64,000 nt of DNA. It comes from Chloroflexia bacterium SDU3-3. Lineage in GTDB: Bacteria; Chloroflexota; Chloroflexia; Chloroflexales; Roseiflexaceae. A program made the position numbers and the translations under genes. The notes beneath the pieces are model-generated. The model saw nothing but the letters and a program-made list of their open reading frames with translations. It made no database searches and was not told the origin of the DNA. Shown here piece after piece: positions 2,160-37,679 of the stretch. Position 1 is the stretch's first letter; each line of letters begins with the position of its first letter. The stretch lies in assembly GCA_009268125.1 (NCBI GenBank), contig WBOU01000004.1, forward strand, positions 148,494-212,493. The letters run 5' to 3'.

Positions 2160-3800
2160 CTACGATGCTACGGGCAGGGCCACCGTGAAGGTGCTGCCCT
2201 GCCCCTCTTTGCTCTGAAGCCAGACTATACCGCCCAACACTGCGGTTAGCTCGCGCACGATCGCAAGCCCGAGCCCGATGCCGCCGTGCTCGCGGGTGAG
2301 CGACTCTTCGACCTGGTAGAAGCGTTCGAAGATCCGCAGCTGCTCGCGCTCGGGGATGCCTACGCCAGTGTCCTCGACCTCCACCACTGCCCACATGCGG
2401 CTCAGCTCACGCCCCGTTGGGGTATGCCCCTTGAGCTGTTCAACCGGCTGAAGCGATGCGCGAACATCGATCTTGCCGCCCGGCGGCGTGAAGCGCACCG
2501 CATTCGAGATCAGATGCCCGGCGATCAGCTGCACCTTCTCGCGGTCGCTCACCAACGTGATCGGCGGCTGGCTGGGCGTGAAGGAGAGCGTCAGCGCGTG
2601 CTCCTGGGCCAGCGGGCCAAGATTACTACAGGCATCCTTTAGTAGATCGCCAAGCACGATCTGGTCGGCGCTCAGGTTGGCCTGGCCCATGTCAAGGTGG
2701 CGCAGGCTAATCATGTCATCGACAATCCCACGGATGCGCTCGCCATTTTCCAGCACGCGGCCTAGGTAGTCGCGCTGGGTATCGGTGGTCGACTGGTCGC
2801 GCAGCATCATGGTGTAGCCCAGCACCAGCGAGAGCGGCGTGCGCAGCTCGTGCGAGGCCACGGCGATAAACTCGCCCTTGAGCTTGTCGAGGTCTTTCAG
2901 GCGGGCGTACGCCTCATCCAGCTGGCTGTAGAGCACGGCGTTGCGCAGCGCGGTGCCGGCGTGGTTGGCCAGCAGCGCCAGCTCCTCTTGCGCGCCAAGC
3001 CGCAGCTCGGGCGCCTGGCCATAGCAGATCACCAGCACGCCGGTGATCTCGCCCTGGGCGTAGAGCGCCGTCGCGATGCCGTAGCTGGCCTCGTGGCCAC
3101 CCATGGTGCCCAGCGGCTCGTCGCCACTGTGCTGCAGGCGGCGCTGCACGGTGGCCTTCTGGGCCAGCCGCCGCCCGCCCGGCAGCAGGGCCGCGCCCGC
3201 GTGCGAGGCGATGGTGACGGGGCGCTCGGCATTCACCAGCACAAAGCCAAACTGGCCGCCGCTCTGCTCAAGGGCGATCCGCAGCAGCGTCGCGCCCAGC
3301 TCCTGCACATTCAGCGTGCTGATCAGGGCCTCGCTATGCGCCAGCATCTGCTCAAGGGCGCGCAGGCGCAGGTTGTCCTGCAGCAGGCCGCGCTTGTGTA
3401 GGGCCTGCTCGACCGCCAGGCGCAGCTGGTCAAGCTCGAAGGGCTTGGGCAAGAAGTCGGCGACCCCGCGCTGCACCGACTGCTGCAGGTTCTCCTTCGA
3501 TGCAAAGCCCGTCATAATAATGATAGCGATCGCGGGGTCGCGATCGCGTGCGATGTGGGCGAGGTCGAGGCCGCTCATGGTGGGCATCTTGATGTCGGTG
3601 AGCAGCAGATCAAAGGAGAGCTCGCCCTGCAGCAGGCGCACCGCCGCATCGGGGTCGCAGGTGGTCAGCACCTCGTAGCCGCTGCGCTGCAGGGTGCGCG
3701 AGCACACATCGCACATATACTGCTCGTCGTCCACCACAAGGATACGCCCCAGAAATGGGGCGGGCGGCGCGCTATTCATCTGCGGTTCTGGCGTGCTCAC
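2160..3800 (-). CDS. hybrid sensor histidine kinase (REC-GAF-HisKA-HATPase_c)
   Basis: 546 aa. N-terminal receiver (ILVVDDEQ...DIKMPTMSG), H-box AVASHELRTPL, ATP-binding G-boxes (DTGVGIP, GGIGLGLAIV). Immediately upstream of the response regulator, so a likely operon. Confidence 0.8.
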   Translation of the reverse strand: MSTPEPQMNSAPPAPFLGRILVVDDEQYMCDVCSRTLQRSGYEVLTTCDPDAAVRLLQGELSFDLLLTDIKMPTMSGLDLAHIARDRDPAIAIIIMTGFASKENLQQSVQRGVADFLPKPFELDQLRLAVEQALHKRGLLQDNLRLRALEQMLAHSEALISTLNVQELGATLLRIALEQSGGQFGFVLVNAERPVTIASHAGAALLPGGRRLAQKATVQRRLQHSGDEPLGTMGGHEASYGIATALYAQGEITGVLVICYGQAPELRLGAQEELALLANHAGTALRNAVLYSQLDEAYARLKDLDKLKGEFIAVASHELRTPLSLVLGYTMMLRDQSTTDTQRDYLGRVLENGERIRGIVDDMISLRHLDMGQANLSADQIVLGDLLKDACSNLGPLAQEHALTLSFTPSQPPITLVSDREKVQLIAGHLISNAVRFTPPGGKIDVRASLQPVEQLKGHTPTGRELSRMWAVVEVEDTGVGIPEREQLRIFERFYQVEESLTREHGGIGLGLAIVRELTAVLGGIVWLQSKEGQGSTFTVALPVAS

Positions 3801-3896
3801 CGGCAGTGCATCTCCTCATAGTAGCGCTCGGTACGACCGGCGTGGTGGCGGGGTGCCCCTGCGCTGGGGCCAGCGAGCAGGCGCGGTACGCCATAG

Positions 3897-5045
3897 CTAG
3901 CTCAGCACCTCAACCGCAGTCACTGGCACCAGGGCGGTCGAGCCGTCATCCAGCTGCACATCCACCGCCTGGGTGCGCACGCGCCCGGCCACCTTGCGCG
4001 GCACATTCGAGACCGTGCGCACCTGGCCCACCGCGCCCAGGTGGTCGCGATCCAGCAGGCGCACCTGGGTGCCGGGGCGCAGCGTGGCGGGCTGCGATTC
4101 CATGGGGATGTTGGATGTGCGGGCCGAGAGCGGGATGACCACGCGTGGGCGGGTGTGCGGGTAGCGCAGCTGGGTCAGCCCTTCGATCAGGGCCTCCTGC
4201 CGATCGTGCGCGGCCAGCAGCTCGAACAGCGCGGTGGCCATGGGGCGCGCCCCAAAGCCCTCGGTGACCACCAGGGTGAGGTCGTAGGCCCGCTCGGTGG
4301 CGGCCACCGGCATCTGCCATGTGCTCACGCCCACCCGCCAGTTGTTGGCGGTGCTCCAGCCCAGGAAGGTGGCCAGCTCGTCGGCGTCGATGCCGCCTAC
4401 GATCACGCCGCGCACCTGCTCGGCCACGGCGCGGCGCAGCGCCGCCGCGGTGACGCTGCTGCCGCCGATCAGCACGGCGTAGGCGCTGCGCGCGTCGATC
4501 ATCTCGGGGCGGATGGGCTCGGATGGGTCGGTGACCAGCAGCCGCAGCACGCCCGAGCGGTCCGGGCCAAAACCGATCGCGCCATAGACCTGCGCGGCGG
4601 GGGTCTCGATCTGCACACCGCGCCCTGGGATCACATCCATCACCAAGCCGCGCACGGTGGCCTGCAGCTCGTAGGTGACAGGGTCGGGCGTGATAGTGAC
4701 ATAGCCCGTCTCGGCATCCACGGCGGTAATGATCCCGGCGATAGGTGCATGGAAGGCGCGCCCGCCGATCGGGCTGGTACGCGCCAGCAGGTCGCCCTTG
4801 TTGATCTTGTTGCCCACCTCGCGCTTCATGGCGCGCTCGACGCTGGCCGGAGTGATCGACAGCGAGCGGGCGACATTCATGATCAGCGGGCGGGCGGGCA
4901 GAAAGGCACGGGCGACCACATCTTCTGGCTCGACGCGCTGGCCGGTGCGCACCAGCACCTCGCCGGGCTGTGGAAGGCGGCGCTCGATTCTCGCTAGTGC
5001 GCCACTGATAAGCGGTGGTATTCCAGAGGGGACGTATAGTGACAT
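3897..5045 (-). CDS. hypothetical protein; possible biotinyl/lipoyl-like barrel-sandwich segment
   Basis: 382-aa ORF with coding-like composition. Segment GDLLARTSPIGGRAFHAPIAGIITAVD resembles a barrel-sandwich hybrid. No family recognised. Confidence 0.45.
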   Translation of the reverse strand: MSLYVPSGIPPLISGALARIERRLPQPGEVLVRTGQRVEPEDVVARAFLPARPLIMNVARSLSITPASVERAMKREVGNKINKGDLLARTSPIGGRAFHAPIAGIITAVDAETGYVTITPDPVTYELQATVRGLVMDVIPGRGVQIETPAAQVYGAIGFGPDRSGVLRLLVTDPSEPIRPEMIDARSAYAVLIGGSSVTAAALRRAVAEQVRGVIVGGIDADELATFLGWSTANNWRVGVSTWQMPVAATERAYDLTLVVTEGFGARPMATALFELLAAHDRQEALIEGLTQLRYPHTRPRVVIPLSARTSNIPMESQPATLRPGTQVRLLDRDHLGAVGQVRTVSNVPRKVAGRVRTQAVDVQLDDGSTALVPVTAVEVLS

Positions 5046-5330
5046 GGTGTGGCGTTCTCCGCGCTAGGACGAACTGCTGTGCCATTATAGCACAGCCGAT
5101 AGCGTGCGGCTAGGGGAAATTGCGCAGTAGAAGGGCATAGACCACCGCCGCCGACTATTTTATTTCTGCGTAGAACTATCTTCGATAGGCATGGTCCGCA
5201 GGCATGGCGGCGGCCCGGATCCTCGCGCGCCCTGCAACTTTCAGGCGCCCGCAGCCGTCTCAGCACCAGAACGTAAATGCCCAAGACAATACAGACCTTC
5301 AAGCACATTCCATCCCGAGGTTACAATACC

Positions 5331-24005: not shown

Positions 24006-24490
24006 CATTTTGGGTGAAAGCGCATCTATGCCCATACCGATCTGGCATGGAATAACCTAGGTAAATCCGAGCATGCTATGCTTTTAGAAAGCCAAGCACT
24101 ATGCTTTAGGAAAGAACCTGCACATGCCGCATCCGCGCGGCGCTATGTCTTCACCTATTGGGAACGCTCTCAAGATTATGGCAGAGAGTATAGAAGAGCC
24201 GCCAGGTTTTGTCAAGTTGATGTTACTGTGATACCCGAAGTATAGCTTATGTTCTCCATTAAACACAAGCCCATGTTTAATGAGAAAAAACTCACTTTCC
24301 CACAGGCAGTGCGGCTAGCTGCTTGCACAGAAGGAGAGCGAGGCTGCAAAGCTGGGGGCGCTTACTTTCCCAAAACGACGGCGCGGTAGCGGTACCACGG
24401 GCTGCGCACCGCAGGAGAGGTCACATTTGACGTTGGTCTGGCGCGGATCTGACATGAGCGCGGGCGATAGTGCGTGTTGAGGAGGCGGAT

Positions 24491-24655
24491 GCCCTGCGCG
24501 GGCAGCGCCGAGGGGCTAGCCCCTAGGAACCCCACAAGGGGGCGTCGCACCCTCCGAACCCCCAATGTTGAGCGTTCCGATGCTGCTCGCTGGCGGCTGG
24601 TGTTCGTGCATATGGCCAGTTTGCACGAGCGGCACCTTCGCCACATGGGCGGGGT
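24491..24655. repeat. about 165-bp repeat, copy 1; its paralog lies at 36401-36565 beside the IS element
   Basis: Roughly 85% identity to 36401-36565. Contains the 14-bp palindrome AGGGGCTAGCCCCT and shared blocks GGCTGGTGTTCGTGCATATGGCCAGTTTGC and GGCACCTTCGCC. Confidence 0.8.
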
Positions 24656-24805
24656 GGGCTGAACGGCGCAGCGCAATTCTGCTTTGCAGGCATACCCTGG
24701 CGCGCGAGATGATGTGCACGATCGCACCCACATGCTCTGCGCAGAAATGTGATTGCCTCGTAGGGCGTGCTATACTACCCCCTACGAGGCATATCAAAGC
24801 TACCT

Positions 24806-30992: not shown

Positions 30993-33008
30993 ATGGGGGC
31001 AATGCTCCTCCTCAACATGATCGGCATCTTCATCATCGTTATCGCGGTGCTCTGGATCTTCTTCCAGTTCGTCCGCTTCATCCCGAACAACCGCATCGGC
31101 ATCGTCGAGAAGCGCTTCGGCGGCAAGTCGGTCAAGAGCGGCCTGATCGCGCTGAACCACGAGGCGGGCTTCCAGCCCAACGTGCTGCGCGGCGGCATCC
31201 ACTTCTTCACGCCGTTCCAGTACAACCTGCACATCGTGCCGCTGGTCACCATCCCGCAGGGCAAGATCGGCTACGTGTTCGCCCGCGACGGCCAAGCCCT
31301 GGCCCCGGCGCAGACCCTGGCCTCGAACGTGGCGGCCAACGACTTCCAGGATGTGGCCAGCTTCCTGCGCAGCGGCGGCCAGCGCGGCCCGCAGCGCCAG
31401 ATCCTGCGCGAGGGCACCTACGCCATCAACCTCGCCCAGTTCATGGTGATCACCGAGGAGCGTGTCTACTACCTGCCGCTCAGCCGCGACGAGGACGCCA
31501 TGATCAAGCGCATGGCCGAGGTGATCAGCGACCGCGACGGCTTCGAGCCGGTGGTGATCAAGGATACCGACGACGCGGTGGGCATCGTGACGGTGCACGA
31601 CGGCCCCTCGCTGGGCGAGGGCGAGATCATCGCCCCGCTGGTGGGCAACGAGCCAAGTACACCCGAGACCTACCACAACAGCTTCCAGGACCCCGAGAAG
31701 TTCCTGGCGGCGGGCGGCCAGCGCGGTCGCCAGTACCAGGTGCTGGTCGAGGGCACCTACTACATCAACCGCCTGTTCGCCACCGTCGAGCTGATCGACA
31801 AGACCGTGATCGAGGTGGGCTACGCCGGTGTGGTCATCTCCTACGCAGGCGAGATAGGGGCCGACCTCTCGGGCGAGGACTACACCCACGGCGAGCTGGT
31901 GAGCCGTGGCAGCCGTGGCGTGTGGAGCACCCCGCTGATGCCCGGCAAGTACGCCTTCAACACCTACGCCGGCCAGGTGGTGCCGGTGCCCACCACCAAT
32001 ATCATCCTGAAGTGGAGCCGCAGCGAGATCGGCGCGCACAAGCTAGATGAGAACCTGTCGGAGATCTCGCTGATCACCAAGGACGCCTTCGAGCCGTCGC
32101 TGCCGCTCTCGGTGGTGGTGCACATCGACTACCGCAAGGCCCCGCTGGTCATCCAGCGCTTCGGCGATGTGAAGCGGCTGGTCGAGCAGACACTCGACCC
32201 CATGGTGGCGGCCTACTTCAAGAATATCGGCCAGACCCGCACGCTCATCCAGCTGCTCCAGGAGCGCAGCGTCATCCAGTCGCTGGCCAGCGAGCAGATG
32301 CGCGAGAAGTTCGTCAACTACAACCTGGAGCTGGAGGAGGTGCTGATCGGCACGCCGTCATCCGGCAAGGGCGACACCAAGATCGAGGACATCCTGACCC
32401 AGCTGCGCGCCCGCCAGATCGCCGAGGAGCAGATCGAGACCTACGCGCGGCAGGAGAAGGCGGCGGTGAAGGAGCGCGAGCTGCGCGAGGCCGAGGCCCG
32501 CGCCAAGCAGCAGGCCGTGCTCACCCAGTCCGAGCTGTCGATCACCGTGCAGTCGAACGAGGGCAAGGCCGAGTACCAGCGCGCCCTGCAGCAGGCCGCC
32601 CAGATCCGCGCCCTGGCCGAGGCCGAGGCCGAGAAGACCGCCCGCATCGGCGTGGCCGAGGCGATCGCCATCGAGGAGAAGGTGCGCGCCTACGGCGGCC
32701 CGCAGTTCCAGGTGACGCAGCAGGTGATGACCCGCTTCGCGGATGCGATCGAGGCCGCCAAGGTCAACATCGTGCCACAGGTGGTGGTGGGCGGCGGCAG
32801 CGAGGGCGGCAGCAGCAGCCAGAACCTGATGGAGGGCCTGCTGGCCACGCTGCTGTCGGAGAAGCTGGGAGTGCCGATCAATGCGGTAGCCGATGCCAAG
32901 CCCGAGGTGTCGGCCATGCGCGAGCAGATCCTGCGCCAGCTCTCGTCGGAGCTGCCCAAGGCGGGCCAGCCGCCGGTGGCCCCGCCGCAGCCCAACGGCA
33001 GCAAGTAG
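30993..33008 (+). CDS. flotillin-like SPFH/band-7 protein
   Basis: N-terminal TM helix, SPFH domain, long Ala/Glu/Gln-rich coiled-coil (EAEARAKQQAVLTQSELS...). ATG 30993 with RBS. Confidence 0.8.
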   Translation: MGAMLLLNMIGIFIIVIAVLWIFFQFVRFIPNNRIGIVEKRFGGKSVKSGLIALNHEAGFQPNVLRGGIHFFTPFQYNLHIVPLVTIPQGKIGYVFARDGQALAPAQTLASNVAANDFQDVASFLRSGGQRGPQRQILREGTYAINLAQFMVITEERVYYLPLSRDEDAMIKRMAEVISDRDGFEPVVIKDTDDAVGIVTVHDGPSLGEGEIIAPLVGNEPSTPETYHNSFQDPEKFLAAGGQRGRQYQVLVEGTYYINRLFATVELIDKTVIEVGYAGVVISYAGEIGADLSGEDYTHGELVSRGSRGVWSTPLMPGKYAFNTYAGQVVPVPTTNIILKWSRSEIGAHKLDENLSEISLITKDAFEPSLPLSVVVHIDYRKAPLVIQRFGDVKRLVEQTLDPMVAAYFKNIGQTRTLIQLLQERSVIQSLASEQMREKFVNYNLELEEVLIGTPSSGKGDTKIEDILTQLRARQIAEEQIETYARQEKAAVKERELREAEARAKQQAVLTQSELSITVQSNEGKAEYQRALQQAAQIRALAEAEAEKTARIGVAEAIAIEEKVRAYGGPQFQVTQQVMTRFADAIEAAKVNIVPQVVVGGGSEGGSSSQNLMEGLLATLLSEKLGVPINAVADAKPEVSAMREQILRQLSSELPKAGQPPVAPPQPNGSK

Positions 33009-33035
33009 CCCCGACGCGGCATCGCCGCACAAACA

Positions 33036-33080
33036 CGACAAAGGCCCCAGGCAGTGCGCCTGGGGCCTTTGTCGTGTTTT
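33036..33080 (+). terminator. rho-independent terminator after the flotillin gene
   Basis: acaaaggcccca-ggcagtgcgcc-tggggcctttgt followed by cgtgtttt. Confidence 0.6.
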
Positions 33081-33336
33081 GGATGTGTTACATAGCTGTT
33101 ACATGACCTTGATGTCGCTGTGAGGATGCCATGGTATACAGGCATGTATCACCACACAAGACGATCAGGAGGAGATTATGGCACCTGTTCAAGCTAGCCG
33201 AACGCCCGCGTTCATAGAAATAGCCTCAGGAAACCCCCGCTCTTTAGGCGGGGGAGGAATGAGGCTTTACCCACATTCCTCGCTTGTACAAGGTTCCAGC
33301 GTCGCCGCATTCAGCGGCGCGGGCATCCGACGTTCA

Positions 33337-33753
33337 CTAAAGTTTCTGGCACTCTAGGATGTACCGCTTAATCACCGATGCACTCACGTGCCCTGCGGTG
33401 CCGACGTCATAAGAAGGTGCCCACAACGTGCCAACTTTCCAGATATGGCGGTCAATCTCTGTAGGGAACTCTTGCCGCAAAACACGCGACGTTGTTCCCT
33501 TAAAGAGTTGGGCCAGTTGCGCAGGACTGAACTTTGGCGGCGCGGAAACGAATAGGTGAATGTGATCCGGCATGACTTCCTGTGCGACCACTTCAATCCC
33601 CCATCGCTCCGCAATCTCACCGAGAAGCCCTTGCAATCGTTCCTGAATCTTGCCAACAAGCACCGGACAGCGGTACTTCGGGCACCACACCAGGTGGTAG
33701 TTGATGTGGTACCGTGCTCCCGGCGTTGATTTGACATGCGTAACTTCCATCAC
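33337..33753 (-). CDS. tnpA: IS200/IS605-family transposase TnpA (Y1 HUH)
   Basis: 138 aa. HUH motif (PDHIHLFVSAPP) and a catalytic-Tyr region (SYDVGTAGHVSASVIKRYI). GTG start overlaps the upstream ORF's TGA. Confidence 0.85.
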   Translation of the reverse strand: MMEVTHVKSTPGARYHINYHLVWCPKYRCPVLVGKIQERLQGLLGEIAERWGIEVVAQEVMPDHIHLFVSAPPKFSPAQLAQLFKGTTSRVLRQEFPTEIDRHIWKVGTLWAPSYDVGTAGHVSASVIKRYILECQKL

Positions 33754-34304
33754 GCTGCAACCCGAACGGCTGGCAAGCCAGCGAGTACCCGCGCTCGTGC
33801 GTGGGCGATGCGGGGAGCAAGACTGGCGAGGCTTGGCGCTTGGGTGAGTGCTTCCAGATCCTCGTCACCTTCGATGTACGCTCGAACGAACGCAACGCCG
33901 ATATGACCCGCAAACCGTCCTACCTCAGTCAAGTCAACCTCAACATCGCTAGCTTTGAACGTTACACCATCAATTTCGTGATCAGGGCCTGTCCACCGCT
34001 CTACCTCTACAGGTTGCGATGTATCGCGACCAATCAAGCGGCGAATGTCAGGATGTTCAAGCAGGTAAGACAGGGCGCGCAACTCGGCAATACCGGAAGC
34101 CTTGAAATCAGCCGTTCGGTCAAGTGCATCAAGATAGCCAACCCAGCCATCTTCCGAGTCGTCAAACAGGGCCAGCTTGACCTTGCCACACACATAAGCG
34201 GTGCATTCCCGTTCGTCGTTGTGTTCGGTGGTAACTACATCCTCAGGAATGGTAGCGGGGGCTTCCTGATTGACTGCCGCCTCGCTGTGTGCGTTCTCAA
34301 GCAA
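33750..34304 (-). CDS. unknown acidic protein (ORF-X), coupled to tnpA; possibly part of a longer 232-aa ORF interrupted by an in-frame TAG
   Basis: 184 aa with no internal Met and a weak TTG start without RBS. The same frame continues upstream past one TAG (34311-34313) into a 45-aa ORF with ATG near 34449 and RBS GGAAGGA. The TGA stop overlaps the tnpA GTG (GTGA). Confidence 0.45.
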   Translation of the reverse strand: MLENAHSEAAVNQEAPATIPEDVVTTEHNDERECTAYVCGKVKLALFDDSEDGWVGYLDALDRTADFKASGIAELRALSYLLEHPDIRRLIGRDTSQPVEVERWTGPDHEIDGVTFKASDVEVDLTEVGRFAGHIGVAFVRAYIEGDEDLEALTQAPSLASLAPRIAHARARVLAGLPAVRVAA

Positions 34305-34550
34305 TTTGTACTACTCGGCGTTGCAGAGCGTTTCACCTTCGCCGTAAGGAGAGCGGCTGCCAAGATAGTTCTCGGTGCCATTGGCAAAGATGAGATAGCA
34401 GTTGTCGTCGCGGGTGATTCGGTCGTAGCGGATTGACTTTGTGGTAGAATCGGCTTGCATTGGAACTCGTCCTTCCAGTGTAGTGGCCTCGTGGGTGGTA
34501 CGAACACCTGCGGGGCCGCGCTTCGTTTCTGTGCCTGTATTATAGCACAG

Positions 34551-34604
34551 TGTACCTACATTATATATACATGTATTGCAATATAGGTACATATGTGATA
34601 TACT
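34551..34604 (+). promoter_or_regulatory. nested 41-bp palindromic operator overlapping a sigma70-like promoter for the HTH-tnpB transcript
   Basis: TGTACCTA...TACATGTA...TAGGTACA, symmetric about 34571/72. -35 TTGCAA (34576-81), 17-bp spacer, -10 TATACT (34599-604). Confidence 0.45.
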
Positions 34605-34650
34605 GCGTACAGTTACGATATACTCTTGCACAGGGGAAGGAGCAAACAGC

Positions 34651-34908
34651 ATGCAAGGGTTTCCTATGCCTATTCGAAGTCGCGTAAAGGTACTTCTAGC
34701 GGAACGCAACTTAGATCGAACACGTTCAGGCGAGGAGTTGATTAGCGTCCGTCGGTTGTCTCGTGAGACAGGGATTACCCACTCGGCGCTCGTGAAGCTC
34801 GTAAACAACCAAAGCGAACGTGTAGACTTTGAGACGCTTGATAAACTCATGCGTTTTTTCGAGACGACGGACATTCGCGATATTCTGGAGTACACCCCCG
34901 CCGAATGA
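34651..34908 (+). CDS. small XRE/Cro-type helix-turn-helix protein, translationally coupled to tnpB
   Basis: 85 aa: MQGFPMPIRSRVKVLLAERNLDRTRSGEELISVRRLSRETGITHSALVKLVNNQSERVDFETLDKLMRFF.... RBS GAAGGAG 7 nt upstream. Its TGA overlaps the tnpB ATG (ATGA). Confidence 0.65.
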   Translation: MQGFPMPIRSRVKVLLAERNLDRTRSGEELISVRRLSRETGITHSALVKLVNNQSERVDFETLDKLMRFFETTDIRDILEYTPAE

Positions 34909-36020
34909 AGCTCACCGCTCAAATCCAGCTTCGCCCCACACCCGCGCAAGCCGATGCCCTCAGGCGCACGCTTGAAACGGCAAACGCCGCGTGCAACGCA
35001 ATGAGCGCAACGGCGTGGGAAACGGGTACGTTCGGGCAATTCGCTTTGCACAAGCTGTGCTATGCCGATACACGGGCCGCATTCGGTCTGTCGGCGCAAG
35101 TGACGGTGCGCTGCATTGCGAAAGTTGCCGATGCCTACAAGCTGGATAAGAAGGCGCAGCGCACGTTTGCACTGCTTGGTGCCGTGGCCTATGACGCGCG
35201 CATCCTGTCGTTTAATCTCGCCGGTTCCTCGGTCTCCATCTGGACAATGGATGGGCGTCAGGCTATCCCCTTCGTGTGTGGCGAACGCCAGCGGGCGATG
35301 CTTGAACACCAGAAGGGTGAAAGCGATCTGGTGTTCAAGCGCGGTAAGTGGTACTTGCTTGTTACCTGCGAGGCAGTGCCAGCGGGAACAGAATGCGCGT
35401 CGGGCGTGTTGGGCGTTGCTCTTGGTGTGACGAACATTGCCACCGATAGCGACGGCACCATCTACAGCGGCAAGGCTATCAAGAACGTGCGTTATCGCCA
35501 TCGGCGGTTGCGTGGCAAACTCCAAAAGAAGGGCACCAAAAGCGCACGGCGACGGCTTCAAGCCCTGTCGGGTAAGGAATATCGGTTCGCACGGCACGTA
35601 AACCATGTCCTCAGTAAGCAGCTTGTGGCGACGGCCAAACGCACGAAGCGGGCGATTGCGTTGGAAGATTTGACGCATATTCGCACGCGGGTTAGGGCTA
35701 GACGGTCGCAGCACGCCACGCTGCACAGTTGGGCATTCGCACAACTGCGGGCGTTTGTCACCTATAAGGCGCAATTGGCGGGTGTGACCGTCCATTTTGT
35801 CGACCCTCGGAATACATCGCGGGAATGCCCGAACGGTGGACATACCGCGAAAGAGAACCGGAAAACACAAGCCTCGTTTGTTTGCACATCGTGCGGGTTC
35901 GCTGGCCTCGCAGATGTGATCGCGGCAGGAAACATTTCCCGCCGGGCGGCTGTAAACCCGCCACACGGCTCGCGAGACGGTACTCCTACCGGGCTGGCAG
36001 GGCCAAAGCCTGCGGCTTAA
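34905..36020 (+). CDS. tnpB: TnpB (IS605 OrfB family; RuvC-like RNA-guided nuclease), catalytic residues intact
   Basis: 371 aa. RuvC-I (GVALGVTNIATDSDG), RuvC-II (AIALEDLTHIR), zinc finger (CPNGGH...CTSCGF), RuvC-III (GLADVIAAGNI). Confidence 0.85.
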   Translation: MKLTAQIQLRPTPAQADALRRTLETANAACNAMSATAWETGTFGQFALHKLCYADTRAAFGLSAQVTVRCIAKVADAYKLDKKAQRTFALLGAVAYDARILSFNLAGSSVSIWTMDGRQAIPFVCGERQRAMLEHQKGESDLVFKRGKWYLLVTCEAVPAGTECASGVLGVALGVTNIATDSDGTIYSGKAIKNVRYRHRRLRGKLQKKGTKSARRRLQALSGKEYRFARHVNHVLSKQLVATAKRTKRAIALEDLTHIRTRVRARRSQHATLHSWAFAQLRAFVTYKAQLAGVTVHFVDPRNTSRECPNGGHTAKENRKTQASFVCTSCGFAGLADVIAAGNISRRAAVNPPHGSRDGTPTGLAGPKPAA

Positions 36021-36400
36021 GCCGTGGGTTGTTTACTGCATTCAGTAGCTCGCTGGCTGCCTTTATCTTGGAGTGCGCGATTGTACCAGCCGCCCATCTC
36101 CTGCCAGAAAAAGCTGGATTCTATGCCTTTTCATGGAGCATCGCGCTAACGTTGATCCTCGCATCTGTGGGGGTTTTCCTTGGAGATGTGAGCTATAGAC
36201 AGTCGCAGAACAGATATTCACTGCTTGGGATGATTGGGGGTATGCTTGTGTTGATTCTGTTTCTTATCGGTATGTTCGCACTGATGCAGCCGCAAGCAGT
36301 TTCGCTGGATTGTGTGAGGGCCAGCCCGCTCAACAGATGTCACTTTTGAGCCTTTTGTGCGCCATCCCCGAGCACGGTACTTCTTGATGGGTGGGTGGGT

Positions 36401-36565
36401 GCCCTGCGCGGGCGGCGCCTAGGGGCTAGCCCCTAGGAACCCCACGAGGGGGCGTTGCCCCCTTCGATCTCCCAATTTTGGGCGTTCCCGTGCGGTCCGC
36501 AAGCGGCTGGTGTTCGTGCATATGGCCAGTTTGCCGTCGCGGCACCTTCGCCGCATGGGAAGGGT
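36401..36565. repeat. about 165-bp repeat, copy 2; paralog of 24491-24655
   Basis: See copy 1. Lies about 380 bp downstream of the tnpB stop, outside the inferred right-end hairpin. Confidence 0.8.
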
Positions 36566-36716
36566 GAGATGCCGCGCCTCGATTATTGCCCATGCGGTTG
36601 AGATTGAGCTTTCGCACCCGCAATGCGGTGGGCAGGGTTTGGCACGATAGCTTGTGATATCTACTCTACCAGCCCAGATATATACTTTCCCTGTAGTGAC
36701 ACAAAACGACCGCTAT

Positions 36717-37679
36717 CTAATAGCGCGCCACCACATCCACCACCACCTGCGCCGCCAGCGCATCGATCACAGCCGAGGCGCTCAGGCCCGCGCCCAGCTT
36801 GCTGATCGCATCCACCGAGAACGCCGTGGACAGCCGCGCCACCTCGGGTAGGGGCAGCCCGCGCAGGTGGCCCGCCACGATCCCCGCCACCATCGCGTCG
36901 CCAGCGCCCACCGTGCTCACCACCGCCACCTCGGGCGGCGCGGCGCGCACCGCCTCGTGCGCGGTGACGAACAGCGCACCATCCGGCCCCAGCGAGACCA
37001 CCACCAGATCATCCTCGCCCACGATCAGCTCGTGCGCGGCGGCCAGGATGGCCTCCTCGGTGGCCAGCATCCTGCCGAGCAGCTCCTCCAGCTCCTGGAT
37101 GTTGGGCTTGATCACCGAGGGCCGGGCCGCCAGCGCGTGGCGCAGCGGCGGGCCGCTGGTGTCCAACACCACGCGGCAGCCGCGCGACTTCAGCACGCGG
37201 ATGAGGTCGCGGTAGATGCCCGCATCCACCCCCGGCGGCAGGCTGCCCGAGAGCACCGCCCAGGGCGCGTGGATCTGGCCCAGCGCGGCCAGCAGCGCCT
37301 CGGCGTCGGCGGGGCTGGGCGCGGCACCGGGGAAGTTGATGTCGGTGGTGGCGCTCATGGCCGGGTCGATGATCTTGATGCCCACGCGGGTCTGGCCATC
37401 GATGCGCACAAAGGCATCGTGGATGCGCTTCTGGGCAAACATCTGCTCGAAGGATGCCGCGTTCTCGCGGCCCAGAAAGCCGGTGACGGAGACCGTATGG
37501 CCGGCATCCGCCAGCGCGGCGGCCACATTCACGCCCTTGCCGCCGGGGTGGTCGTGCACCGACTCGGCGCGGTTGACGCGGCCAGCGGTGAAGCTGTGGA
37601 TCTCCACCGTGCGGTCGATCGCGGGGTTCAGCGTGACGGTGACAACATCGCACGCATGCGGCAAAACGGGATCACTCAT
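36717..37679 (-). CDS. fruK: 1-phosphofructokinase (PfkB family)
   Basis: 320 aa. Ribokinase-like motifs VVLDTSGPPL and VGAGDAMVAGIV. Last gene of the fructose PTS operon. Confidence 0.75.
   Translation of the reverse strand: MSDPVLPHACDVVTVTLNPAIDRTVEIHSFTAGRVNRAESVHDHPGGKGVNVAAALADAGHTVSVTGFLGRENAASFEQMFAQKRIHDAFVRIDGQTRVGIKIIDPAMSATTDINFPGAAPSPADAEALLAALGQIHAPWAVLSGSLPPGVDAGIYRDLIRVLKSRGCRVVLDTSGPPLRHALAARPSVIKPNIQELEELLGRMLATEEAILAAAHELIVGEDDLVVVSLGPDGALFVTAHEAVRAAPPEVAVVSTVGAGDAMVAGIVAGHLRGLPLPEVARLSTAFSVDAISKLGAGLSASAVIDALAAQVVVDVVARY

Follow-up and report, generated by a model that had tools for sequence, protein, structure and literature searches.

A stretch of 64,000 nucleotides from Chloroflexia bacterium SDU3-3 (GenBank assembly GCA_009268125.1, contig WBOU01000004.1, positions 148,494 to 212,493 of the forward strand), referred to below as the window, contains at 33216-36036 a transposon of the IS200/IS605 family (IS605-type, divergent; 2,821 bp). 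Elements of this family were long regarded as minimal, carrying a transposase and TnpB only. Here, tnpA on the minus strand and tnpB on the plus strand are arranged divergently, each being headed by a tightly overlapping extra gene, with an AT-rich control region lying between the two units. The extra gene ahead of tnpB encodes a helix-turn-helix (HTH) protein, and the one ahead of tnpA carries a conserved N-terminal domain (the N-domain) and is split by a stop codon. The reading favoured here is that of a single IS605-type transposon which inserted 3' of TTCAT into a gene for a small membrane protein, in a Chloroflexia chromosome of high GC content, and which holds a phage-type two-gene cassette between tnpA and tnpB; it is judged probable as a whole, with the repression mechanism proposed for the HTH protein and the phage origin of the cassette included in that judgement. 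The features of the locus, in order of position, are the following.

33178-33215, plus strand: interrupted small membrane-protein gene, 5' part of the rejoined open reading frame (ORF)
33211-33215, plus strand: TTCAT, putative target or target-adjacent motif (TAM), immediately 5' of the left end
33216-33336, plus strand: left end (LE), with a nested hairpin and a second hairpin
33337-33753, minus strand: tnpA, Y1 (HUH) transposase of 138 aa, likely start ATG at 33750
33750-34304, minus strand: "ORF-X", 184 aa, acidic, the variable C-terminal part of the N-domain gene behind an in-frame TAG
34311-34460, minus strand: ORF of 49 aa with the conserved N-terminal domain, separated from ORF-X by the TAG at 34311-34313
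34461-34650, no strand: divergent control region, 190 bp, AT-rich, with predicted promoters, operator-like 15-mers and a Shine-Dalgarno (SD) sequence
34651-34908, plus strand: XRE/Cro-C1-type HTH gene, 85 aa (80 aa from the ATG at 34666, the start common to relatives)
34905-36020, plus strand: tnpB, 371 aa, with D172A, R270H and C311G; matches TnpB/Cas12f-like profiles
36005-36036, plus strand: right end (RE), comprising the terminal hairpin of the RE and of the omega-RNA scaffold; element terminus ...GGGTTGTTTAC
36037-36052, plus strand: flank in the position of a would-be omega-RNA guide, directly 3' of the RE, as expected from the known TnpB mechanism
36037-36349, plus strand: interrupted small membrane-protein gene, 3' part of the rejoined ORF

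The gene heading tnpB encodes a protein whose residues 31-83 align with positions 11-62 of the 63 in the Pfam profile HTH_26 (E=9.8e-13, 48.6 bits, cutoff 22), so that the putative regulator of this element is an HTH_26 protein and not an element-encoded ribbon-helix-helix (RHH) protein of the Arc kind. Its TGA stop codon overlaps the ATG of tnpB (ATGA), and the TGA of ORF-X likewise overlaps the start of tnpA (GTGATG), where the ATG one codon in matches the start used by relatives. In the control region between the two units, an operator-like 15-mer, TGTACCTAYATTRYA, occurs in three copies, at 34530-34544, 34551-34565 (plus strand) and 34577-34591 (minus strand, inverted). The second and third of these together make up a 41-bp palindrome, the arms of which (34551-34562 and 34580-34591) match at 11 of 12 positions and enclose a nested inner palindrome. 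A sigma-70-like promoter directed towards the HTH gene is predicted on the plus strand (-35 TTGCAA at 34576-34581, a spacing of 17 nt, and -10 TATACT at 34599-34604), with the SD sequence AAGGAG at 34637-34642 ahead of the gene, while a minus-strand promoter directed towards the N-domain gene was predicted by eye from the extended -10 element TGCTATAAT (plus-strand positions 34539-34547). The 15-mers overlap the -35 element and spacer of the predicted tnpB-side promoter as well as the -10 element of the predicted tnpA-side promoter; a bidirectional promoter with overlapping regulator sites is in this case a prediction from sequence only. Both the control region and the motif are conserved in a related metagenome contig (L174), where three matching sites are found and the sequence differences are symmetric. 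A hairpin with a 15-bp stem is also present at 34483-34519, where the 5' leader of the N-domain/tnpA transcript is predicted to lie, and appears terminator-like on the plus strand.

The transposon itself is a real element and, in outline, well explained. TnpA matches Pfam Y1_Tnp (E=8.3e-38, 129.7 bits, cutoff 23) and NCBIfam transpos_IS200 (2.2e-40), and it displays the HUH motif (DHIHLF) and the C-terminal tyrosine (IKRYI) of a Y1 transposase, with one deviation from well-conserved columns (I65). A Tyr-to-Asp change (SYDVGT versus SYYVGT in the closest relatives) was considered as a sign of damage and rejected, the column being poorly conserved. Subterminal hairpins stand at the LE and RE in place of terminal inverted repeats, and the putative target abuts the LE with no target duplication, the flanks rejoining in frame; both are features of the IS200/IS605 family, membership of which does not require TnpB. 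The LE is built of an outer stem (AGCCTCA at 33222-33228 and TGAGGCT at 33260-33266) around an inner hairpin (33229-33258), followed by a second hairpin (33303-33319) adjoining the tnpA stop, and the nested hairpin (minimum free energy -28.8 kcal/mol) is kept with compensatory changes in 30 related loci. At the other end, the stop codon of tnpB is located in the loop of the RE hairpin, for which RNAalifold found compensatory changes in five of six pairs, with pairs 15-22 and 16-21 never broken; more than 40 loci are alike through this hairpin to GTT(T/G)AC and unrelated in sequence beyond it. TnpA would be expected to cleave at 33216 and 36036. Of 30 related loci, the flanks of which are unrelated, about 28 show TCAT at a constant distance 5' of the LE hairpin, and TTCATA is common to the window and two phage-like contigs (L001 and L092); TTCAT would be the target or TAM by analogy with IS608 and ISDra2.

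Deletion of 33216-36036 in silico yields an ORF of 116 aa that is preceded by the ribosome-binding site AGGAGG and encodes three hydrophobic segments, which lends modest support to the exact ends, given that an in-frame rejoining would occur by chance in one case out of three. The surrounding host DNA has a GC content of about 70% and the 715-aa upstream gene, the only host gene measured, a GC content at third codon positions (GC3) of 0.96. The element stands out within a low-GC segment of about 3.6 kb (approximately 33080-36600, 48-60% GC), its own GC content being about 0.55 and its GC3 0.53-0.66. DNA homology with the closest relative, L001, is limited to window positions 33211-33721 and 34905-36042, with the TnpB proteins 78% and the TnpA proteins 74% identical. 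Much of this had been anticipated in a first-pass annotation made from the sequence, in that the Y1_Tnp and TnpB profile matches and the two extra genes bear out an IS200/IS605 element with a non-canonical gene set, its proposed limits (33225-36075) being close to those derived here; the co-orientation and translational coupling of the extra genes, the XRE-type HTH identity of the 85-aa product, and the shared AT-rich divergent region with its palindrome were also correctly recognised.

ORF-X had been described in the same annotation as an unknown acidic protein coupled to tnpA. The coupling and the lack of a family match hold, but its standing as an independent gene does not: ORF-X lies in frame behind the 49-aa ORF with a single TAG between them, and in relatives both parts form one continuous gene of 84-300 aa with the same N-terminal motif. 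The codon-position GC pattern of ORF-X appears coding. When its 184-aa product was used as the query, no homologue besides itself was found among 5.8 billion proteins, nor any match in Pfam, NCBIfam or PHROGs. The 49-aa part is 44% identical (E=3e-8) to an 84-aa protein encoded in L004, and a profile of the N-domain retrieved 511 representatives at E<=1e-3 from 1.84 billion proteins. In nearly all of these the domain is situated at the N-terminus, in proteins of 48 to about 500 aa with unrelated C-termini, among which there are single weak matches to immunity-type domains (Imm5_like and SUKH-4). The family is absent from Pfam and PHROGs and is uncharacterised. An AlphaFold2 model of the N-domain predicts a beta-beta-beta-alpha fold (predicted local distance difference test score, pLDDT, of 80.7), and the fold search, including comparison with AP2-like and YegP-like beta3-alpha domains, was unspecific. 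Since members as short as 48-75 aa occur in the family, the 49-aa product may still work by itself.

Turning to other loci, five independent cases were found in which tnpB or tnpA is immediately preceded by a gene for a small DNA-binding protein (L174, L001, L004, L092, and L090). In L174, a HTH protein 82% identical to that of the window precedes an intact TnpB (60% identical) with the same ATGA overlap, behind the conserved upstream promoter/operator region. The phage-like contigs L001/L003 and L092, the flanks of which differ between L001 and L092, carry the complete window order, from the LE through a leftward tnpA and N-domain gene to a rightward small regulator, tnpB and the RE, with an RHH gene replacing the HTH gene. 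L004-L006 retain the N-domain gene divergent from an RHH-tnpB pair and lack tnpA, and a search for an LE in L004 found none. Lastly, L090 (IMG/VR UViG_3300028804_000007, positions 2528-5134) has a 73-aa HTH gene followed by tnpA and tnpB in the same direction, the ATGA overlap being between HTH and tnpA; in this locus the LE is followed by two small minus-strand genes (105 and 68 aa) ahead of the HTH gene. The HTH of L090 is 27% identical to that of the window. In the contexts that were sampled, the N-domain gene stands opposite a divergent gene for a small DNA-binding protein; further loci with such a partner are listed below.

L173: HTH_26 partner, 41% identical to the window HTH (E=6e-22); no tnpA or tnpB
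L216: HTH_26 partner, 38% identical to the window HTH; no tnpA or tnpB
L171: HTH-like, divergent partner; the N-domain gene is followed directly by tnpA
L217: RHH_5 partner; no tnpA or tnpB
L220: RHH_5 partner; no tnpA or tnpB
L167: RHH homologue as partner, followed by a P22-type antirepressor; no tnpA or tnpB

Most of the five loci devoid of both transposon genes (L173, L216, L217, L220, and L167) resemble phage early regions. The RHH proteins paired with N-domain genes constitute one family, with weak Arc/RHH matches in L001, L004 and L092. As this comparison of loci indicates, the divergent pair of HTH or RHH gene and N-domain gene is a recurrent module and not a set of random passengers.

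A few features of these relatives were noted in passing. The RHH partners in L001 (2667-2867), L092 (3717-3923), L167 (4592-4807) and L220 (157-372) share a C-terminal tail, ...E(x)GNW(I/V)PELLAA, the terminal LAA of which resembles an ssrA-type degradation tag and hints at short-lived repressors. Between the RHH gene and tnpB, a gap of 71-77 nt (L001, 2868-2944; L092, 3924-4000; L004, 4930-5000) contains a conserved GC-rich stem-loop, GCCGCACGCGCTG...CAGCGCGCCGC, which is absent from the window, where HTH overlaps tnpB. The 2.7 kb past the intact HTH-TnpB pair of L174 (1457-4184) are nearly devoid of ORFs that reach 60 aa and have no Rfam match. In another metagenome contig (L221, 848-4613), two different TnpB genes, one solo and one in a canonical tnpA-tnpB arrangement, lie within 3 kb of each other near a Transposase_mut gene, in what looks like an insertion hotspot.

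TnpB of the window, which is 100% identical to the annotated TnpB of the source organism, matches NCBIfam guided_TnpB (7e-52) and has Cas12f-type proteins as its closest solved relatives. In the alignment to Cas12f structures, A172 (GVALGV) falls opposite the catalytic aspartate of RuvC-I, and G311 replaces the second cysteine of the first CxxC in the zinc finger. Both D172 and C311 are kept in all 119 other aligned family members, D172A being found in one sequence of 120. Three deviations at 142 highly conserved columns are ordinary for the family (median two, maximum six); two of the three private changes of this protein hit key residues, namely the catalytic aspartate and the zinc ligand. 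The RuvC-II glutamate and RuvC-III aspartate are retained and the domains are present, though an intact RuvC triad (D-E-D) and zinc finger are not. The first-pass annotation had taken all three RuvC motifs and the zinc finger to be intact and TnpB to be apparently active, a view contradicted by D172A and C311G. The window TnpB is probably nuclease-dead because the RuvC-I aspartate and a zinc ligand have been lost. With these TnpB residues missing and the N-domain gene split by a stop codon, the window copy is functionally damaged, and the element may possibly still be excised by TnpA.

The HTH protein is proposed to be the repressor of the divergent tnpA and tnpB promoters because of the properties of XRE/Cro regulators and of the Arc precedent in IS605 elements. 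A dimer of the protein would bind the three 15-bp sites in the spacer and, once bound, would repress both face-to-face promoters, its own included (autoregulation), whereby TnpA and TnpB would be kept low. The HTH_26 gene would head the tnpB transcript and the divergent N-domain gene the tnpA transcript; the N-domain protein, being the second partner of the cassette, could counteract the HTH protein in the manner of Cro. Phage early-region switches are the most likely source from which the cassette was captured.

Arc-carrying IS605 elements, reportedly first noted by Zedaveinyte et al. in 2024 and by Altae-Tran et al. in 2023, are the closest known system, and the element described here is a HTH variant of their layout. 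Arc RHH proteins encoded in IS605 elements were found by Moon, Zedaveinyte, Wiegand and Sternberg (bioRxiv, 10.64898/2026.09.24.754181) to bind the bidirectional promoter and to repress the tnpB promoter. This was the first report, in September 2026, of transcriptional self-control by an element-encoded repressor, and given Arc, a transposon-encoded repressor in an IS605 element is no longer new. Altae-Tran et al. 2023 (PMC10691335) had mentioned HTH and other genes as rare cargo of IS200/IS605/IS607 elements. As in the Arc elements, divergent tnpA and tnpB units are accompanied by a small DNA-binding protein encoded by the element; the bidirectional promoter between the units, and the sites of that protein which overlap the promoter elements, are predicted in the present case. 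Some Arc-associated TnpBs also carry catalytic substitutions, and the relatives L001, L004 and L092 hold an Arc-like RHH gene in the same slot. The putative regulator of this element differs from Arc in having the XRE/Cro-type HTH_26 fold instead of RHH, and the tnpA unit is headed by a second conserved gene, that of the beta3-alpha N-domain. Moreover, the pairing of an RHH or HTH gene with an N-domain gene is shared with phage early regions, and the element described here is known from its sequence alone.

Canonical elements such as IS605, IS608 and ISDra2 have in common with the present element a Y1 HUH TnpA, a TnpB whose 3' end is overlapped by an omega RNA, subterminal hairpins at LE and RE, and a conserved short motif (TTCAT in this case) 3' of which insertion takes place. 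They differ from it in lacking the two extra genes and the 190-bp control region between tnpA and tnpB, and in that the window TnpB is without the RuvC-I aspartate and one zinc ligand. The cassette is reminiscent of phage immunity switches (lambda cI/cro; P22 immI mnt/arc-ant), which likewise comprise two small divergent genes around a compact operator region in which a site is repeated about three times, and in L167 the RHH partner precedes a P22-type antirepressor as arc precedes ant in P22. Unlike those switches, the window cassette is situated inside a transposon, its two predicted transcripts carry tnpA and tnpB, and the N-domain protein is not recognisable as Cro, CI or Arc. A more far-reaching reading, which is put forward tentatively and is on balance doubtful, holds that a Chloroflexota/phage IS605-type lineage took up a whole phage-style two-regulator switch, in which a small repressor (RHH and HTH being interchangeable) faces the beta3-alpha N-domain protein.

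Several observations weigh against the regulated-transposon reading. About 160 loci of TnpB relatives, in genomes and viral contigs, carry no cassette and consist of a solo tnpB or a canonical tnpA-tnpB pair, with cassette-free canonical relatives of 72-76% identity among them. The cassette, being rare among TnpB relatives, is therefore dispensable for transposition. The HTH family is itself found mostly away from TnpB, 39 of its 40 metagenome matches having none nearby. In the control region, five of the seven window-wide matches to the 15-mer fall within 62 nt against 0.96 expected per window, an enrichment that is partly circular because the pattern was derived from the same sites that were counted, and the promoter scan missed the minus-strand promoter. 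In Arc elements, arc is typically co-oriented with tnpA, whereas the window HTH heads the tnpB unit. The survey of relatives, which the first-pass annotation had proposed as the means of telling regulators from unrelated passengers, has come out mixed, with about 160 loci lacking the extra genes and five independent ones bearing a small DNA-binding gene. For the 166 TnpB loci, the count of elements with a regulator gives a minimum, since the diverged HTH of L090 escaped a tblastn search with the window HTH as query (E<=1e-3) and came to light only when the ORFs were read.

The occurrence of the same gene pair in phage-like loci without transposon genes invites the alternative that the HTH and N-domain genes are cargo with a function of their own (addiction or toxin-antitoxin-like, anti-defence, or superinfection exclusion) and do not regulate tnpA and tnpB. 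The highly variable C-termini of the N-domain proteins, with their single weak Imm5_like and SUKH-4 matches, are in keeping with this, as is the ...ELLAA end of the RHH partners, which on our own reading resembles the degradation tag of labile antitoxins. It is nevertheless unlikely, seeing that tnpB and tnpA, by their start/stop overlaps, would share the transcripts of the cassette genes, that the operator-like sites overlap both of the predicted promoters that must drive tnpA and tnpB, and that Pfam, NCBIfam and PHROGs gave no match to a toxin-antitoxin or defence family, no PADLOC search having been made. A cargo function and autoregulation can also coexist. Far harder to sustain is the idea that the locus came about by chance juxtaposition of a tnpA fragment beside a separate HTH-tnpB fragment (or a prophage remnant), or that its small ORFs are spurious. 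The ORF-X part is an orphan and the cassette is missing from most relatives, as such an origin would have it, yet the ends at 33216 and 36036 are those bounding the canonical relatives, the four-gene order recurs in L001 and L092 between different flanks, and the HTH gene has both a significant Pfam match and an 82% identical homologue in the same position; the low-GC segment is, besides, only about 3.6 kb long and the flanks rejoin to one ORF.

The state of TnpB raises the further question of whether the D172A/C311G protein has been exapted as a TldR-like RNA-guided DNA-binding regulator which, together with the HTH protein, benefits the host. Like the TldR proteins and other exapted nuclease-dead TnpBs, it combines a RuvC active-site substitution with an adjoining transcription factor gene; two of its three private substitutions at highly conserved positions strike the catalytic residue and the zinc ligand in an ORF that is otherwise intact, the RE/omega hairpin is preserved, and regulators are known to have arisen from inactivated TnpBs (PMC10691335). 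Set against this are the confinement of the substitutions to a single sequence (1 of 120) in place of the clade-wide inactivation of TldR, the retention of the RuvC-II glutamate and RuvC-III aspartate, and the intact tnpA, LE and RE, by which the locus remains transposon-like. A search of the 64-kb window for TTCAT followed by the guide flank (a TGCATTCAGTAGCTCG-like target) gave no match besides the element's own flank, leaving the guide without a host target there. The HTH partner in L174 accompanies an intact nuclease, and about 15% of Y1-associated TnpBs carry such replacements (PMC10691335). Exaptation is thus very unlikely, and the domesticated nuclease module envisaged in the first-pass annotation is not upheld, since the ends, tnpA and the RE/omega hairpin are all preserved and the catalytic changes, far from marking a clade, occur in this copy alone. 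The reading preferred remains that of an IS605-type transposon carrying a phage-type regulatory cassette.

As for the surroundings of the element, no second copy is present in the window, and an Rfam scan of 32500-37000 returned sub-threshold chance matches only, with no described omega-RNA family among them. The interrupted 116-aa gene is itself low in GC (about 0.51) relative to the host. At 33031-33079, just past the 715-aa gene that ends at 33008, an inverted repeat of 22 bp without mismatches encloses a loop of 5 nt; it is most likely the terminator of that gene and no part of the element. An intergenic repeat of about 170 nt, with copies at 36399-36568 and 24490-24660 that are 87% identical, contains a GC-rich palindrome, CCTAGGGGCTAGCCCCTAGG. 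The repeat is without an Rfam match and could represent a host element akin to miniature inverted-repeat transposable elements (MITEs) or repetitive extragenic palindromes (REPs), or a small RNA.

Taken at the level of the family, the locus and its relatives indicate that the regulator slot of IS605 elements can hold an unrelated fold, the XRE-type HTH, that the regulator can be coupled to tnpB instead of tnpA, and that it can be accompanied by a further, uncharacterised partner gene of a kind also present in phage early-region switches, all of which points to TnpB transposons having repeatedly captured phage regulatory cassettes. If the two-regulator switch were true, the transposase and nuclease units would each be headed by one of two opposing regulators, with an ON/OFF or excision-versus-retention decision going beyond simple repression, and the unannotated N-domain family, with its 511 representatives, would constitute a novel class of switch proteins. 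Such natural, compact repressor/operator pairs may also offer potential for the control of TnpB genome editors. The window copy is of limited value in this regard on account of its damaged nuclease and N-domain gene, and it is the cassette family that is the part most worth attention.

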